In this document: piece after piece, positions 37,126-48,762 of the stretch
Position numbering within the stretch: the stretch's first letter is position 1
Layout: each line of letters opens with the position of its first letter
NCBI GenBank assembly: GCA_964645535.1
Contig: CAZYCQ010000008.1
Coordinates: 18,696-82,695 of the forward strand
Source of the DNA: an uncultured archaeon
GTDB taxonomy: Archaea > Asgardarchaeota > Heimdallarchaeia > Heimdallarchaeales > Kariarchaeaceae
DNA length: 64,000 bases
Direction of reading: 5' to 3'
The notes under the pieces: generated by a model
What the model was told of the DNA's origin: nothing
The model's database searches: none
The model's input: the letters and a program-made list of their open reading frames with translations, nothing else
Position numbers and translations under genes: made by a program

Positions 37126-37226
37126 CCCCATTTTTCTAAGTTAGTGATCTTTTTCAGATGTTTTTTGCGTATTTTTTGCAACACATTATCATCGCAAAGC
37201 ATAAAGGGAACAGAACTGTAGGACGG

Positions 37227-37790
37227 ATGTTGACAGATCAATCGGTTTCTGATTTTTTGCGAATGGGTGATTTTATCAACCAAATTTTTGTTGTGCACAA
37301 ATCTGGGATTGTCATTCTTTCTAGGATTTATCAGCAAAGTTGCATTTCCTCAGACCCTCAACTTATTGGAGGATTGCTGAGTGCAATGTTGACTCTGGTT
37401 CAACATGACACGAACGATACACGTTATTGCAGTTGGGAAATGGATGGAAGGCACAGATTGAAAGATATCGGGATGTCCTGCTCCAGATGGTTTATCGGCA
37501 CCCATGGAGACTTCACCATTGCAACCCTAGTTCCCTATAGCTCACCCTTGATCACTTCAAACAGATATGATATCATTCAGAAAATCAATCAAGCCATAAT
37601 TGCCTCTTTTTCAATCTTCATCGAATTTGGGACAGATGGAATAAACGGAAAGGTTGAAGCCATTCAGGATTACACAATCGAGTTTGGGAACACACTCGAC
37701 AGTCTGATATTTGAGTCCCTGTATGACAATCTGGGTATAGAAATAGGATTTGAAAAGGGGAAGCATTATGATGTACAGAGACTAGTATAA
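37227..37790 (+). CDS. Standalone longin/roadblock-like protein
   Basis: IFVVHKSGIVILSRIY...DPQLIGGLLSAM...LKDIG...FTIATLV. Start uncertain (37158, 37227 or 37263). Confidence 0.7.
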   Translation: MLTDQSVSDFLRMGDFINQIFVVHKSGIVILSRIYQQSCISSDPQLIGGLLSAMLTLVQHDTNDTRYCSWEMDGRHRLKDIGMSCSRWFIGTHGDFTIATLVPYSSPLITSNRYDIIQKINQAIIASFSIFIEFGTDGINGKVEAIQDYTIEFGNTLDSLIFESLYDNLGIEIGFEKGKHYDVQRLV

Positions 37791-40244
37791 TGAATGAAAA
37801 AGGTTCAGAATCTCATTTTCCTTGATGAGCTTCCCATCAGCCACACCAACCTCCATAAGAGGGAGCAAGGAACTGATGAGGGTTTGGAAAGCTAATTGGT
37901 CTGTTTTTTGTCGAGGAGTTGTGAACAGAATCACATCAAAATCGCCTACTGTTTCAATGAAAATGACGGAATGCCAGAAGAAAATGGCATTTACGTTCTC
38001 CTTGGAATTACGTATTTCTTCGACAAGACCGTTGATGCTGGAGATAAAATGCTCTACAAGGATTGAAATGAGCTCTTGGTTTTTTTCTTTGATTGAAGAT
38101 CGAAAAATGTATTCCCCCTTGTATTTAATGAAGAGGTCAGTACTCTTTTCATGCCCTTCTACTCCAAAAAGAGTGGGAGAAAATATCAATAGGTCTTCAG
38201 CACTCTTGCGTATTAAGGTATAAGGATCGGTAATGTTCTGAATTATCGAATAATTTGAATCTTTGAGAAAGAAATTGAGGATTTGTATGAAGTCATAATT
38301 TTTTCCGTTAAGGATATGCCATTTGACCAAATCACGACATCCCTTGAAATTATCATCTGCACGACGTGTCTCACCAATTTTAAGATAGAAGAGTCCCTTG
38401 ATGAATAGAACATAGGTATGCAAAAGCTTCTGACCATATCTTAACGAGATGGTTTCCAAGATTTGTATTGCAGATTCAAGACGGGTACGCAGAAGAGAAT
38501 ATTCCCTGGTTTCTTGTTGAACTGTCCCTAGGGATTTAAACCACATACGGACAATGTTGAAATAATAGTTGATTAATGAAGGAAGTTCTCTTACGATTTT
38601 CTTTTTGAGGAGAATTGAAATATCAATATTCATTATTTCCATAAAGAATTTTTGTAGATTCTGTGTGTACTCTTGATAGTTTGTCTCAAACCACTTTCTT
38701 GAAGCCAATGCAACAGGTTGAGAACGGTCATTCACCAAAAGGGAATGGATTTTCACCCGCTTGGCCATATTTGCGTCCCAAAGTACATTGAGGATAAAGT
38801 TCAAATCAAATTTCGGATAGTCTTGGCGGAATTCGTCAAGTGATTTGATCCTGATTGAGGGATTGAGGAACAAGATTGTTTCAATGAATTTGTCAATGTC
38901 AGGTGTTCTTTTAGAAGGTACAATGAGATTGAAGGTGAGATAGTGAAAGGGATCGATATTATCGGGGTGTTCAACAAGAAGGAAACGATTTGAAAGGTAA
39001 GGCAATTGTTGCAGACTTGCAATTCGGATCCATTCAGGAGTTCCTTTTTCAAGAATAAACACAATATCGGGAAAGGAGGGATGTTGACCCTTGGCACGAA
39101 CCTTTTTCCCTGAAAGTTGACTGAATTCAGGGGAGACCGGGAGGGGATCGCCTAAACCAAAATATCGGTAAGAATAGGCCATCAGATCACGATCCAGATG
39201 TTCCTCGATTATGGAACCTTGGTGGAATTCAAAATGTCTCAGAACATTTAGAGCAAAACAAATCAATCGTAAATCCTGTGTTTTGTTGATTTCTTTTGAA
39301 AGCAAGGTGAATGAAAATTCGTCATGATGGAAATTAAGGATTCTTCCAGTTTCAAACCAGACATCCTCCAACCATTCGTCATCATCATAAATTTCCTTTA
39401 CCAATTCTGAAAGGGCAACCACGAATGTTCCCAACAATGTTGAAAGGTTCCGTTTTCCTCCTGCATTGAAACCAAATAATGTTAGACTTTCTTTGGAAAT
39501 GGATATCGATTCATAGGGATGTTTGGGAGGGGGAATGAAATAGGGATTGGTGATGAAAAGCATCATCCAATTGAATTGAAAGAGGTTTTCAATTATGGGA
39601 TCAATATCAGCCAAGCTTAATTGTTCCTGTTCAAGATAAGATAACCCTATTTGAAATTCCTTCGTGAAGCCCTGTGTAAGTTTGCTTTGATCAAACAGAA
39701 GAAGCCAGTCCAAAAGTTCTCCTGCTTTTATTTTCAATTGGGAGGTCAGCTCTTTTCTCCCAAAACAGTGATTGACCAATCCTTGAATGATGAGGAGGTA
39801 TGCACAAAGAAGAAACTGAGAATGCGTTTCCAATTGATCGTGTAATTCTCCGATAGCAACATTCAATAGATCGACATAAACGATGTCATTTTGTTCCTTA
39901 AGGAGTTGATAGAGTATTCTGCCCAAGGCAATTCGCCCCTCAATCAACCAATAGGTCTCTTCATTTCGAAAACTTCCCAAATCCATAATCGAAAATGCAT
40001 GTAAGGATTCTGTCGAAGATATTTTGTACCCAAAGATTTTCTGGAAGTCAATTGAACAGGAGTCAATCAATTGCTCTAGATCTGCAAAAGAATAGTCGGA
40101 TGTAGAGGATTTTTTTGAGGAACTAGACGAGTTGGGATAAGCTGAGGCAATCTGATTATTGAAGCACTTTTCATTAAAAAGTTGAAAATATTTATTGTCT
40201 TGTATCAATCCCACCACATAGGAAAGATTATCACAACCTATCAT
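37782..40244 (-). CDS. Protein with two helical+longin-like modules
   Basis: Internal duplication: LLGTFVVALSELVKEI..LEDVWFETG and LVEHFISSINGLVEEI..VNAIFFWHS. Confidence 0.7.
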   Translation of the reverse strand: MIGCDNLSYVVGLIQDNKYFQLFNEKCFNNQIASAYPNSSSSSKKSSTSDYSFADLEQLIDSCSIDFQKIFGYKISSTESLHAFSIMDLGSFRNEETYWLIEGRIALGRILYQLLKEQNDIVYVDLLNVAIGELHDQLETHSQFLLCAYLLIIQGLVNHCFGRKELTSQLKIKAGELLDWLLLFDQSKLTQGFTKEFQIGLSYLEQEQLSLADIDPIIENLFQFNWMMLFITNPYFIPPPKHPYESISISKESLTLFGFNAGGKRNLSTLLGTFVVALSELVKEIYDDDEWLEDVWFETGRILNFHHDEFSFTLLSKEINKTQDLRLICFALNVLRHFEFHQGSIIEEHLDRDLMAYSYRYFGLGDPLPVSPEFSQLSGKKVRAKGQHPSFPDIVFILEKGTPEWIRIASLQQLPYLSNRFLLVEHPDNIDPFHYLTFNLIVPSKRTPDIDKFIETILFLNPSIRIKSLDEFRQDYPKFDLNFILNVLWDANMAKRVKIHSLLVNDRSQPVALASRKWFETNYQEYTQNLQKFFMEIMNIDISILLKKKIVRELPSLINYYFNIVRMWFKSLGTVQQETREYSLLRTRLESAIQILETISLRYGQKLLHTYVLFIKGLFYLKIGETRRADDNFKGCRDLVKWHILNGKNYDFIQILNFFLKDSNYSIIQNITDPYTLIRKSAEDLLIFSPTLFGVEGHEKSTDLFIKYKGEYIFRSSIKEKNQELISILVEHFISSINGLVEEIRNSKENVNAIFFWHSVIFIETVGDFDVILFTTPRQKTDQLAFQTLISSLLPLMEVGVADGKLIKENEILNLFHSLY

Positions 40245-40480
40245 GATTTCTGATTAAATAAATTTATTCTACAACCGTATGGGGAATTTTTGATTTCCGA
40301 TGCGTCCGATGGAACTTTTAGAAAACTGTTAAACGCAAATATAACCATCATTTCCGATGGAAATGTGGCAATGCAAATGACTTGAGAATTTGAGGGTAGA
40401 AATAGTATCTTTGCGCAATTTGAACCCCCTTTCCGTTCAATATTTACTTGTTTCCTAAACTTATGAGTGAAATCATTCAT
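40241..40480 (-). CDS. Small hypothetical protein (or split N-terminus of the downstream gene)
   Basis: Overlaps the lipase stop by 8 nt and the next start by ATGA. Confidence 0.5.
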   Translation of the reverse strand: MNDFTHKFRKQVNIERKGGSNCAKILFLPSNSQVICIATFPSEMMVIFAFNSFLKVPSDASEIKNSPYGCRINLFNQKS

Positions 40481-41258
40481 TCCTCATAATGTGATCAATG
40501 ACTGAAATGTAGGTTTCAATCATATGCTCTTCAAAAGAAAGGGTGCTCAGAAACTTGATGGCAGATTCCAATGTTGATTCCAGTTTATCAAACCATTTAG
40601 GGTTTATAATGATCCTTTGATTGTTATCAAGCAAAACTTGTGTTAGGAGATGACGATAGCCAAACCCTTTGGGGGGGACTTGACCGATAATATCTTTGTC
40701 ATTCAAGATGATGAAACTTTCATCGATCTCTTTGGAGAATTTCCTTTTGAACCATCGGTTCCCAGTCCTAGGCATGCCAAAGGACCAGAATTTAATCGGC
40801 AACTGAAATCTTTGTTTAAGAGACATTGCCGCGATTGAGCCAATGCCACCTCCCATGGAATAGCCAATTACCTCAATTTCTGCAAGAGAAGGCCGTAATG
40901 CCTTCAGCTCCTCTATTTTTTGATAGATTTCAGCTTCAACAGATCGGAAGGCTTGAAAAAAACCGGCATGAACCTTTGGTCGAAAGAAAGGACATCGTTG
41001 ATGTGGATAGGGAGTCAGAAGGATATTGATATTGGTGAGAAAATCCTGGGGAGAATCTGTTCCCCTGAAAACAACTAGGATGGATTTGGATCCTTCAGCG
41101 ATATACCCTTGGATGTCGCTCTTTTTATTATCAAACACATGAAACAGCTCATATCCCAATGGTCGAATTCCTTCTTCAATCTGTTGTGGAGATGTTTTGA
41201 AAGCCAAAAGGCACAACGATGCAAATTTTTTGGCAGAGGCTAAATCAAAGGAGTTCAT
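40473..41258 (-). CDS. Class 3 lipase (Lipase_3)
   Basis: VVFRGT, VHAGF, GYSMGG nucleophile elbow, SFGMPRTGN, DIIGQVPP, EH..ETY. No signal peptide. Confidence 0.92.
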   Translation of the reverse strand: MNSFDLASAKKFASLCLLAFKTSPQQIEEGIRPLGYELFHVFDNKKSDIQGYIAEGSKSILVVFRGTDSPQDFLTNINILLTPYPHQRCPFFRPKVHAGFFQAFRSVEAEIYQKIEELKALRPSLAEIEVIGYSMGGGIGSIAAMSLKQRFQLPIKFWSFGMPRTGNRWFKRKFSKEIDESFIILNDKDIIGQVPPKGFGYRHLLTQVLLDNNQRIIINPKWFDKLESTLESAIKFLSTLSFEEHMIETYISVIDHIMRNE

Positions 41259-41293
41259 TGATTGAAAATATGCTTCCCTAAATATGAAGGTTT

Positions 41294-42748
41294 TCAGATA
41301 CCAAAGTATGACTTTGCCAAGTCATTCAGTTCGTCAATCACTTCATTGGGGATATAATTATATGAGGTCACATCATATTTCTTGAAAACATCTACAGCCT
41401 TTGTGGAAAATTCCTTAAGGGCGACCTTATCCCGTATTTCCTTGTTCATTGTGAAAAGAATGAAGTTCAACTTTCTGACAGGGTAAACATAAATTGCACC
41501 TTTTTTGAAGTAGATTCGTTCTAAGCTCTCACTGTCACCAAATTCATTGACCAATGTCATCAGTGCATTGACGAAGTTCCCCAACAGTATTGGGAAATCC
41601 TGATTGGCAGATGAGATATTAGAACGGTAGTACAATGTCATCATGTTAGTTGTTATGATAATGGAATGTTGTAACCCTTCGGGGATAAGTTCATCAAGCC
41701 CAAAAAATGGTTCTTTTAACCAAACAAGTTCTTCAACGGGAATAGAAAGAAGTGCATCGAGTGCATAAAGAAAATCCTTTTCGGCCTCATCCATGTCAAG
41801 AATCTCATTTTCCAGCAAAGAAAGATAGAAGAAGCCGATGGTATCAAAAATATTCACGACGTCTATTTCTGAATCATTGTGCTGAAACCATTGTTTCATT
41901 TGATCTGCGGCAAGAAATGTACCCTCTGCATTCTCACGGTCATGGATTGAATGGTAGATCAATGACCTGACATAAAGGGAAAACATCATGAGAATTTTTT
42001 GGTTGAAATACGTCCCAATTATTTCAATCTGGTTCAGAGCATTGAAGATTGTGCTCAAGTAACGGGTTTCCTTATTAGGTTGGTATACACCATTTTGGTA
42101 AAGCACTTTTGCTGCAAGACCTATCATTGCCTTCAATCCATTGACATAATCAATCAAGAGGTTGGCCAATTTCCTTTTTTCCTTGACCTCATTGAGTCCA
42201 AGGGCAAGTTCAAGGAAATTTGCATCAATTACCGTTTCAAGATATTCCTCCATTAATTGTTGATCCAAGGCATCTCTAACTCTTTGAACCTTGACACGTT
42301 GAGCCAAAAAATTCTCTATCATTGTGGATCTGGAATATCGAAGGAGGTATTCATCATGCAATGATAAAAGATAGTTGCCAATTTGGGTGTCGGTATTATC
42401 AATCTCGAAGAAACCATGAATTAGTTCATCTTCTTCCATATTCAGAATTGTGGGTTTGATGCCTTCGTCGACATTGATGAAATATCGATATCGATCAGGA
42501 TATCGGGACTTGAGATGGGATAGAAAGACCATGGAATTTGCAATGAATTCATCCTCCCAATCTTTCAGATCAATCAAGACACAAAAGGAAGGGGTTTTGC
42601 CGACCAAAAAGGCTGCCTCATATCCAGAGGTGGTCGAATAAATCGGGAATTCATCAATTTTTGGAGCTTTTACAAGATCATGTACTTTCAAATGGATAAT
42701 TGACAATCTTTCGATGAAGACACACCTTCCTTGAACCAATAAACACAT
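41294..42748 (-). CDS. Protein with one helical+longin-like module (paralog of 37782-40244)
   Basis: NQKILMMFSLYVRSLIY and LLGNFVNALMTLVNEF..LERIYFKKG..NFILFT..DKVALKEF. True start may be slightly downstream. Confidence 0.7.
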   Translation of the reverse strand: MCLLVQGRCVFIERLSIIHLKVHDLVKAPKIDEFPIYSTTSGYEAAFLVGKTPSFCVLIDLKDWEDEFIANSMVFLSHLKSRYPDRYRYFINVDEGIKPTILNMEEDELIHGFFEIDNTDTQIGNYLLSLHDEYLLRYSRSTMIENFLAQRVKVQRVRDALDQQLMEEYLETVIDANFLELALGLNEVKEKRKLANLLIDYVNGLKAMIGLAAKVLYQNGVYQPNKETRYLSTIFNALNQIEIIGTYFNQKILMMFSLYVRSLIYHSIHDRENAEGTFLAADQMKQWFQHNDSEIDVVNIFDTIGFFYLSLLENEILDMDEAEKDFLYALDALLSIPVEELVWLKEPFFGLDELIPEGLQHSIIITTNMMTLYYRSNISSANQDFPILLGNFVNALMTLVNEFGDSESLERIYFKKGAIYVYPVRKLNFILFTMNKEIRDKVALKEFSTKAVDVFKKYDVTSYNYIPNEVIDELNDLAKSYFGI

Positions 42749-42780
42749 AGGTTTTATAATAAAAAACCTTTGTGGAAGCT

Positions 42781-47304: not shown

Positions 47305-48762
47305 ATGGCGGAACCCACGGATGTAAGCCTATACATCCGAAGACTGCAAGTAATTTCTCAGGACGGATTGACAATCTATCACTATCCAGATACCTTCAAG
47401 AAAAATCCACAATTGATTTCAGGGATGCTCTCCGCCGTCTTCCTATTTATCAAGGAAGAATATGGGGGAAATGTCAAATCCATCATGCTTTCAGATCGGA
47501 AGATCAATTTCATAAGATATGGGAATTATCTCATAATCCTAGAACTAGAAACATTTGTTGATGAGGGATGCACACAGATTTTCTTTGATTACCTTTTGGA
47601 TCTCATGAAACCGGTTTTTGATAAGGCAAAGTCGGACTACAATCTTGCCATTACCCTTTTGGAAAGTATTGACCTAGGGCAGATATTCAGCTATGAACGG
47701 CAACTAGAGATTCTTATGAGACATGAAGTGCCAAGAGCATTGCAGGATGCATTTATCTTGATGCGAAGAAACAAGATAGAGATAAAACACACAGGAAACT
47801 GGTCTGCAAAGGCCATAGCTCGCTTCAAGGAACTGTTCGACAATAGGGATCAATTTGAAGCAATGAACATTGGAAAGGCGGAAGATGGAAGTTTTCAGAC
47901 ATTGATAAGTGATTCCACCACCAAAGCGGGGGTACTTTTCTTGTACCTACCCACTTATTCTTTTCAACTTTTAATCGCATTGCCTGAAAAGAGGGATAGC
48001 CTGTTGCTAAATATAGAGACTGGATTGAAAAATCTGTTTAGCTATCTTTTTGAGATGTATCCTCAAATCGATCTGGAAAAGATCAAGGAATATTTGCTTT
48101 CATTACGATTTCCCATAGAGATTAAGCATGACCATGAGTCTCAGGAAAATACGTTCAAAGAACAGATTCCAGACATGAACCCCATTAAGTTCGGAGTTCT
48201 AGCATTTGAGTTGCTTGGCAGTGACCTAGCAGTGGCAGTTGAGAGAGTTTTTACAGGAGAAAAGGTCGCAATTGTATGTGGAGAAATCGCTGCGTTTGCC
48301 ATTAAGACATTGTTTCAGCACTTTCTACCGAACTTAACTGAACAAATCCAATATTTTATGGATTCGGATTTATTCGTGGAAAGGAATGGTTTAATTTTGA
48401 TCCATCCCAGATTGGAAACACATTTGGAAAAAAAGAAGTTCAAAATTATTAAATTAGGGGAAAAACGCCAGAAAACGGATAATTCATCGTATATCTATCG
48501 AATATTCCGTGAAGCAACTGAATTTACCCTAGAAAATCGTTTGATCTTTTTTGCAGAAAAAATAAAGGAAATGACGGACATCTATGGAGACATCCTATTC
48601 TGCACTGTTGCAGAGTTTGATCGTGAAAGGGCTAGAAAACAGCTGAAAAGGATCAAGGCAACCCATAAGGACATTTATGAACTAGGAAAGAAAAAATTGG
48701 CCAAAGAATATCCCCAACTCATTTCACATTTGAACCAATTGGAACGGGGATCATTTAACTGA
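47305..48762 (+). CDS. Longin-domain protein with putative DENN/folliculin-like C-terminal region
   Basis: N-terminal LQVISQDGLTIY...NPQLISGMLSAV...VKSIML; C-terminal LLGSDLAVAVERVFTGEKVAIVC...LFQHFLP. Confidence 0.65.
   Translation: MAEPTDVSLYIRRLQVISQDGLTIYHYPDTFKKNPQLISGMLSAVFLFIKEEYGGNVKSIMLSDRKINFIRYGNYLIILELETFVDEGCTQIFFDYLLDLMKPVFDKAKSDYNLAITLLESIDLGQIFSYERQLEILMRHEVPRALQDAFILMRRNKIEIKHTGNWSAKAIARFKELFDNRDQFEAMNIGKAEDGSFQTLISDSTTKAGVLFLYLPTYSFQLLIALPEKRDSLLLNIETGLKNLFSYLFEMYPQIDLEKIKEYLLSLRFPIEIKHDHESQENTFKEQIPDMNPIKFGVLAFELLGSDLAVAVERVFTGEKVAIVCGEIAAFAIKTLFQHFLPNLTEQIQYFMDSDLFVERNGLILIHPRLETHLEKKKFKIIKLGEKRQKTDNSSYIYRIFREATEFTLENRLIFFAEKIKEMTDIYGDILFCTVAEFDRERARKQLKRIKATHKDIYELGKKKLAKEYPQLISHLNQLERGSFN

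Follow-up and report, generated by a model that had tools for sequence, protein, structure and literature searches.

We analysed a 64,000-nucleotide (nt) stretch of DNA from an uncultured Kariarchaeaceae archaeon of the class Heimdallarchaeia (referred to below as the window), in which a class-3 lipase gene lies between the genes of protein A, of 484 amino acids (aa), and protein B, of 820 aa. A and B are built of one repeated unit, in which a receiver domain (REC) is followed by helices resembling tetratricopeptide repeats (TPR) and then by a longin domain, and B arose by tandem duplication of such a unit, its first domain having eroded. We lean, with modest confidence, towards a reading in which A and B serve a small GTPase encoded elsewhere as scaffolds that need no phosphorylation, and the lipase works on its own as a cytoplasmic acyl-ester hydrolase. 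Shared ancestry appears to account for the neighbourhood better than one co-transcribed lipid-signalling machine would. The called reading frames of the locus are the following.

41294–42748, minus strand: protein A, 484 aa as called; pseudo-receiver, TPR-like helical solenoid, longin
40473–41258, minus strand: class-3 lipase, 261 aa; Ser134-Asp189-His245; cytoplasmic
40241–40480, minus strand: 79-aa open reading frame (ORF), a chance open frame across a non-coding spacer; no gene
37782–40244, minus strand: protein B, 820 aa; eroded N-terminal domain, helical, longin, REC-like, helical, longin
37158–37790, plus strand: standalone longin protein, convergent with B; real start probably at about 37263

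The preliminary description of this locus, made from the sequence alone, had listed four co-directional ORFs facing a convergent longin-like gene, and this layout was as described, including the spacing between the called minus-strand ORFs (a 35-nt gap, an 8-nt overlap and a 4-nt overlap). A close relative of A starts at a codon that reads GTC in the window (42700–42760), and the predicted start of A is probably at residue 10–15, with the TTG of residue 15 as the likeliest codon. Purifying selection acts on all four proteins of the locus (A, the lipase, B and the standalone longin), with saturated synonymous sites and 51–85% protein identity to their closest relatives. Searches of Pfam and NCBIfam gave no match for A, B or the standalone longin, and none of the four locus proteins matched the PADLOC defence-protein models at E 0.01.

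The repeated unit was evident from pairwise BLASTP comparisons of A with the two halves of B (E 1.8e-10 and 1.8e-15, far above chance) and from profile–profile comparisons (99% probability). The claim of a three-copy module thus found support, and all six motifs quoted for it were present. The helical and longin parts of that module stand; its receiver domain had been overlooked, as REC folds are present in both A and B. The domains were placed as follows.

42329–42706, minus strand: REC fold of A, residues ~15–140, pocket decayed; VIA Z 15.2 to the HupR REC 2jk1
41714–42226, minus strand: helical hairpin array of A (TPR/14-3-3-like), residues ~175–345; contains the helical motif described earlier
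41297–41686, minus strand: longin of A, TRAPP/sedlin/AP-sigma type, residues ~355–484; no GP motif, no conserved arginine finger
39150–39509, minus strand: first longin of B, hidden Markov model (HMM) E 3.6e-12; hhalign 98.9%
38742–39077, minus strand: REC-like alpha/beta domain of B, residues ~390–501; predicted local distance difference test (pLDDT) ~70–89; Z 9.0–9.5 to many receiver domains
37785–38138, minus strand: second longin of B, HMM E 1.2e-7; hhalign 96.9%; longin topology in a low-confidence model

The REC of A was recovered by hhalign (E 5e-4) and in a structure model for which the folding alignment took in relatives with an intact REC. Neither A nor B matched Pfam Response_reg, but in distant homologues of A the N-terminus is a canonical receiver, matched by Pfam at E 1e-10 to 1e-19. 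Compared with these Pfam-positive orthologues, A retains the acceptor Asp60, has lost the acidic pair of beta1, and carries Asn92 in place of Thr/Ser and Ile116 in place of Lys. The full phosphorylation-pocket signature, which is present in the sister-genus orthologues, is missing from A. The second half of B was folded from four B sequences alone, so that the REC-like fold of its middle domain provides an independent check on REC, even though the sequence-profile match of this domain to REC was not significant. Profile support for REC at the N-terminus of B was weak (E 7e-4 to 0.03), and this domain is a probable eroded REC, as far as profile comparison can tell.

The helical region of B homologous to that of A gave Z 8.5–11.7 to TPR/14-3-3 folds, scores that are common for helical bundles. 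The Atlas features of the helical part reached 0.91 to Asgard TPR clusters, and there was no Pfam TPR match. The longin fold, which had been proposed from short motifs, was borne out in A by structure and in both copies of B by profile homology. Residues 359–484 of A are modelled as a sheet of five antiparallel strands, with a single helix packed on one side and two further helices at the C-terminus, and gave Z 13.5 to TRAPP Trs23 (root-mean-square deviation 2.4 over 122 residues) and Z 12.8 to CPLANE, and their Foldseek matches include sedlin, TRAPP and AP sigma. The standalone longin had a template-modelling score by query of 0.62 to a Fuz/Mon1 longin cluster. Longins of GTPase-activating proteins (GAPs) of the FLCN/NPRL2/SMCR8 type are marked by an arginine finger and by a GP motif located between their first two strands (PMC12290439). 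The GP motif is absent from all four longins of the locus, the hairpin of strands 4 and 5 is short, and the Arg located there in A is not conserved among orthologues.

Among the 83 genomes of the class that were searched, the full-length module family was confined to the family to which the window belongs, where it occurred in 9 of 12 genomes; one of its members clusters at 90% with OLS27643.1 of Heimdallarchaeota LC_2, a lineage of the Kariarchaeaceae. A Pfam Response_reg match was found in 7 of 16 members. At loci with an intact REC, a gene of a Ras/Arf-family GTPase was at most three genes away in six of nine cases and a histidine-kinase gene was nearby in five of nine; as the genomes are kin, these neighbourhood counts are descriptive. 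In the DNA examined, none of the 11 module loci outside the lipase clade had a Lipase_3 neighbour. The earlier proposal of longin control over the lipase is unsupported: beyond the genus, the module family is associated with genes of small GTPases and histidine kinases, and the most similar lipases from other genera occur in other contexts. No GTPase gene is near the window locus, and about 21 small GTPases, by a crude motif count, are encoded elsewhere in the genome. Two-component genes are few in the genus, with 8–10 REC matches vs 41 in genome G008.

Genes of the intact REC–helical–longin type located between genes of Ras/Rab-like GTPases and PAS histidine kinases were seen in several genera (loci L055 8810–15049, L017 1764–8477, L018 3402–8258, L110, L111 and L113 3946–12401), and in L113 the module gene overlaps the kinase gene upstream. 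Other Heimdallarchaeia encode TPR-longin proteins of 600–725 aa that are weakly similar to the helical–longin part of the module (L057–L063, L095).

The lipase-adjacent modules form a single clade (support 99/97 with the B halves, 100/100 without them), and the lipase adjoins the orthologous module gene, that of A, in four of the four genomes of the genus. Thus, a recent isolated insertion of the lipase gene, which would have undermined the linkage first noted, is ruled out, and the linkage itself holds throughout the genus but is absent beyond it. The order A, lipase, spacer, B and convergent longin is retained in G001, G002 and two metagenome lineages. In G003, the most divergent genome of the genus, the orthologous A and lipase genes lie head-to-head in a locus from which B and the standalone longin are missing, and a search of this 93% complete genome revealed no full-length B. 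The adjacency of A and lipase sits inside a genus-wide block of unrelated genes, including those of an S9 peptidase, RNase III and a pyridoxal-phosphate (PLP) enzyme. Since G003 also keeps the S9–RNase III pair and the pair of a transmembrane protein and the PLP enzyme, the pairing of A with the lipase is explicable by block synteny. At least 56 longin-like proteins are encoded in the genome, a longin gene is next to 3.3% of its genes, and in other genera the standalone longin has its orthologues in unrelated contexts.

The lipase matched Pfam Lipase_3 (PF01764) with E 6e-25 and 88 bits (cut-off 22), and its residues 37–210 align with fungal lipase structures, with matches in the PDB to E 6e-17. 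As had been noted, its Ser-Asp-His set is intact and it has no signal peptide: among 18 sequences, Ser134 and His245 are invariant and Asp189 is nearly so, the GxSxG elbow is present, the oxyanion-hole residue is conserved, and the N-terminus contains no hydrophobic stretch. A narrow lipase alignment search matched four loci, all of Heimdallarchaeota. In this genus, PlsY is encoded together with three PlsC-like acyltransferases and a protein resembling glycerol-1-phosphate dehydrogenase (G1PDH) (G000 C43:20098–20757, C12, C24, C83, C36), so that genes of ester and of ether lipids are both present; for LC_2, these lipid genes have been reported in part (PMC6431249). Because of PlsY and the PlsC-like enzymes, endogenous ester lipids may exist, and they are possible substrates of the lipase.

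The closest lipases of other genera adjoin genes of the GNAT or enolase superfamilies, or others. At L096, L097 and L101 a GNAT-like gene recurs beside the lipase, with an enolase-superfamily (OSBS/NAAAR-like) gene in two genomes. A second, divergent class-3 lipase of the genus is located at L105 7101–9047 (G003 C9) and at G000 C62:16488–17363 (contig end), and its gene in G003 is directly downstream of a same-strand gene of a standalone Fuz-type longin.

The view of the locus as a four-gene operon did not hold, as its third ORF is non-coding and the lipase and B have promoter-like elements of their own. The 79-aa ORF has a codon score of -0.117, a usual value for shadow ORFs and lower than the first percentile of real genes; it is missing from a collection of 15 billion proteins and has no homologue in any relative. 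Its frame is broken by stops in most relatives, which carry a plain spacer of 221–265 nt in its place. Three other readings of it, namely a small protein, a start of B displaced by a frameshift and an antisense-encoded peptide, were rejected, since across five relatives every frame either stops or is without a common start. As the ORF is non-coding, the overlaps flanking it are a coincidence and show no translational coupling. We scored the promoters of the lipase and B with a matrix of the transcription factor B recognition element (BRE) and TATA box built from 331 divergent upstream regions, for which the 95th percentile of operon-internal controls was 4.3. The locus has the following elements.

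42752–42774, minus strand: BRE/TATA-like element of A, conserved in L021 and L023; resembles the genome-derived consensus by eye
41281–41293, minus strand: BRE/TATA-like element of the lipase, directly past the stop codon of A, 23–25 nt before the lipase ATG
40253–40282, minus strand: promoter-like element of B, scoring 5.4 (window), 5.0 (L022) and 4.5 (L023)

The element of the lipase scored 4.4–6.1 in six orthologues and keeps its fixed distance of 23–25 nt to the start, though the intervening DNA varies. These motif data favour separate, leaderless transcription of the lipase and B, with read-through possible. A scan for sigma-70 promoters, a method that is not applicable to archaea, gave results at chance level.

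In the scheme that we favour, A and B would be genus-specific offshoots of a family of receiver/TPR-like/longin response regulators, the sister-genus orthologues of which most likely relay phosphorylation from a histidine kinase to a Ras/Rab-like GTPase. To judge from the tree and the distribution of the genes, one module copy may have come to adjoin a class-3 lipase gene in this genus and then have lost its phosphorylation pocket, and a later duplication would have given the two-unit B, sandwiching the lipase. The longin domains would pair, that of A with A or B, and the two of B possibly within one chain, and the paired longins would be a platform for one of the ~21 small GTPases, acting in a manner resembling a guanine-nucleotide exchange factor (GEF) or as a tether, and not as a GAP. 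The lipase would be active, made from its own promoter, and would act on acylglycerols or other fatty-acid esters, while the spacer between it and B would be regulatory DNA with an Orc1/Cdc6-type box.

Several observations weigh against this scheme. The loss of the REC pocket coincides with the loss of the GTPase/kinase neighbourhood, so that the GTPase role of A and B may have been lost as well, and no GTPase partner of either protein was identified. The promoter calls are motif scores and not transcripts, and the trees have long branches. The adjacency of A and the lipase has been kept over ~75% protein divergence and through a switch from tandem to head-to-head orientation, in which the two genes may share a promoter region. 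Two of the 15 other lipase loci have a longin gene at most two genes away, which is not beyond chance, and only 2 of 2753 genes have longin genes on both sides. Here, the sandwiching of the lipase reflects a single duplication.

A further reading concerns the spacer between the lipase and B, which contains a conserved non-coding element with the following parts.

40290–40434, minus strand: conserved non-coding element, candidate Orc1/Cdc6 site
40422–40434, minus strand: G-string box
40344–40363, minus strand: box resembling the origin recognition box (ORB)
40328–40338, minus strand: invariant 11-mer
40302–40314, minus strand: weaker third box

According to this reading, which we regard as tentative at best, the spacer is a secondary or dormant replication origin that holds the surrounding gene order or, alternatively, an Orc1/Cdc6-bound operator for B. 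Blocks of the spacer are conserved in five relatives, while just 3–4% of fourfold sites are invariant, and a high-scoring ORB-like box is present in five of the five orthologous spacers. One of the boxes is strong and two are weak, and up to three share the same orientation. The central box matches the Saccharolobus ORB (as in PMC12890983) at 15 of 22 positions, and, with a matrix whose training left out the sites of this genome, it shares third place among 7.2 million positions; in L023, its copy has a 17-nt identity to an ORB of this genome's canonical pair. The genome also has three Orc1/Cdc6 paralogues. However, chance matches in coding regions reach equal scores with the ORB matrix, and the best box has a truncated G-string. 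No cdc6 gene is near the spacer (paralogues are on contigs C50 and C12), there is no strand-asymmetry switch at the spacer, and the element is absent at the G003 locus. Moreover, canonical ORB pairs with full G-strings, 121–124 nt apart, are located elsewhere (G000 C28:42073/42197, L126; G002 C204:61092/61216; G001 C289:544/665); the intergenic DNA around them is orthologous, contains short tandem repeats and has no cdc6 gene next to it. This canonical site is likely the main replication origin of the genus, and the spacer would more probably be an Orc1/Cdc6-type operator or a dormant origin than a main one. Two other candidates for the spacer were rejected: a structured RNA, as there was no near-threshold Rfam match and no covariation support on either strand, and a repeated element, as the spacer has a single genomic copy and no BLAST-level copies in the family.

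It is also doubtful, though worth weighing, whether A (and B) came to serve as lipase partners, their longin/TPR scaffold binding or localising the enzyme, possibly under a GTPase, with remodelling or signalling via ester lipids such as diacylglycerol or phosphatidic acid as the output. The adjacency seen in all four genomes of the genus and maintained through rearrangement would fit such a partnership, as would the clades formed by the orthologous lipases and likewise by the orthologous A proteins, the ester lipids that may be provided by PlsY and the three PlsC-like acyltransferases, and the longin gene directly upstream of the second G003 lipase. On the other hand, the lipase link is missing outside the genus, the promoter-like elements are separate, the unrelated neighbours are conserved equally, and G003 combines the lipase with a locus free of B and the standalone longin. 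An extended version, in which a receiver–longin switch was uncoupled from its histidine kinase and rewired to the lipase, possibly for GTPase-gated ester-lipid remodelling or diacylglycerol signalling, with the downstream scaffold gene under an Orc1/Cdc6-type box, appears unlikely to us. We consider it improbable that A and B are ligand- or partner-sensing scaffolds without a tie to a GTPase or the lipase, with a pseudo-receiver that recognises a metabolite or protein and a longin that serves for dimerisation alone, like the longins of adaptors and SNAREs. In favour of this, the pseudo-receiver of A has stayed well conserved in the genus though its pocket is lost, non-GEF longins (AP sigma and mu, sedlin) are among the best structural neighbours, and no GTPase gene is near the window locus, but the ancestral neighbourhood has GTPases, and Asgard GTPases and their regulators are usually outside shared operons (PMC10933270).

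The scaffold role that we favour can be set against known systems. The longin of A has its fold in common with the TRAPP core longins (Trs23/TRAPPC4, Bet5, sedlin), CPLANE/Mon1–Ccz1 and AP sigma, from which it differs in its 9–17% identity, its fusion to REC and helical domains, and the lack of a TRAPPC3-like partner in the locus. With receivers of the HupR/RpfG type and pseudo-receivers, A shares the REC fold (Z about 15), and its sister-genus orthologues keep the signature; contrary to these receivers, A is without the acidic pair, Thr/Ser and Lys, B is eroded further, and the output domain is a longin. The lipase has the Pfam family, triad and oxyanion-hole residue in common with class-3 lipases of Thermomyces, Gibberella and Rhizomucor and with feruloyl esterase A, but lacks a signal peptide and has an archaeal host. 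In the polarity module RomR/RomX–MglB–MglA of Myxococcus, a receiver-domain protein and a platform of the roadblock/longin family meet at a small GTPase; these are separate proteins there and fused domains here, and the likeness is by analogy alone. The spacer box shares the dyad core and the purine-rich flank with the archaeal ORB consensus (PMC1868953, PMC12890983), whereas the best box of the spacer differs from archaeal ORB origins in its truncated G-string, the lack of an adjacent cdc6 and the lack of a skew switch.

Platforms of longin and roadblock domains have been described in Asgard archaea, with longin dimers as GTPase platforms (PMC10933270). In Liu et al. (bioRxiv 10.1101/2020.10.19.343400, Fig. 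5c), Asgard longins fused to two-component domains are described as NPRL2-like. The combination of longin and two-component domains in Asgard archaea by lineage-restricted domain shuffling is common to those fusions and the present family. In contrast to the fusions as described there, the present longin is TRAPP/sedlin-like and follows TPR-like helices; its receiver has decayed, the whole unit occurs in duplicate, and the neighbouring gene encodes a lipase. Our literature search, largely confined to sources other than subscription journals, found no report of the REC–helical–longin family, its GTPase/kinase neighbourhood, its decayed and duplicated form, or the lipase link.

The family joins a prokaryotic phosphorylation receiver to a eukaryote-like GTPase-regulator domain, inside an Asgard class close to eukaryotes. 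In Asgard genomes, it is usually difficult to assign partners to GTPase regulators (PMC10933270); in several genera, a histidine kinase and a Rab-like GTPase are encoded beside the module, giving named kinase/regulator/GTPase sets with which one can test how two-component signals reached small GTPases before eukaryotes. The window locus would represent a later stage, in which receiver decay and internal duplication led to a tandem-longin scaffold. If the lipase partnership were true, it would tie longin scaffolds to ester-lipid turnover in an archaeon with PlsY and PlsC. At the conserved ORB-like spacer, Orc1/Cdc6 sites of Heimdallarchaeia can be tested separately and at low cost.

Three further genes deserve mention. 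A second paralogue of the module in G003, of another clade and with a decayed REC, is located at L016 9193–10539, two genes from plsY; a link to plsY was rejected, since the two are separated by a RidA-like gene and no such link exists in G000–G002. Within the window, positions 47305–48762 of the plus strand encode a 485-aa protein with a longin-like N-terminal domain, which is missing from the G003 locus and kept in most of the genus block. Besides that of the lipase, the only gene of the genome sandwiched between longin genes is a thermosome gene (G000 C28:36950–38611), and this arrangement is conserved in G002.

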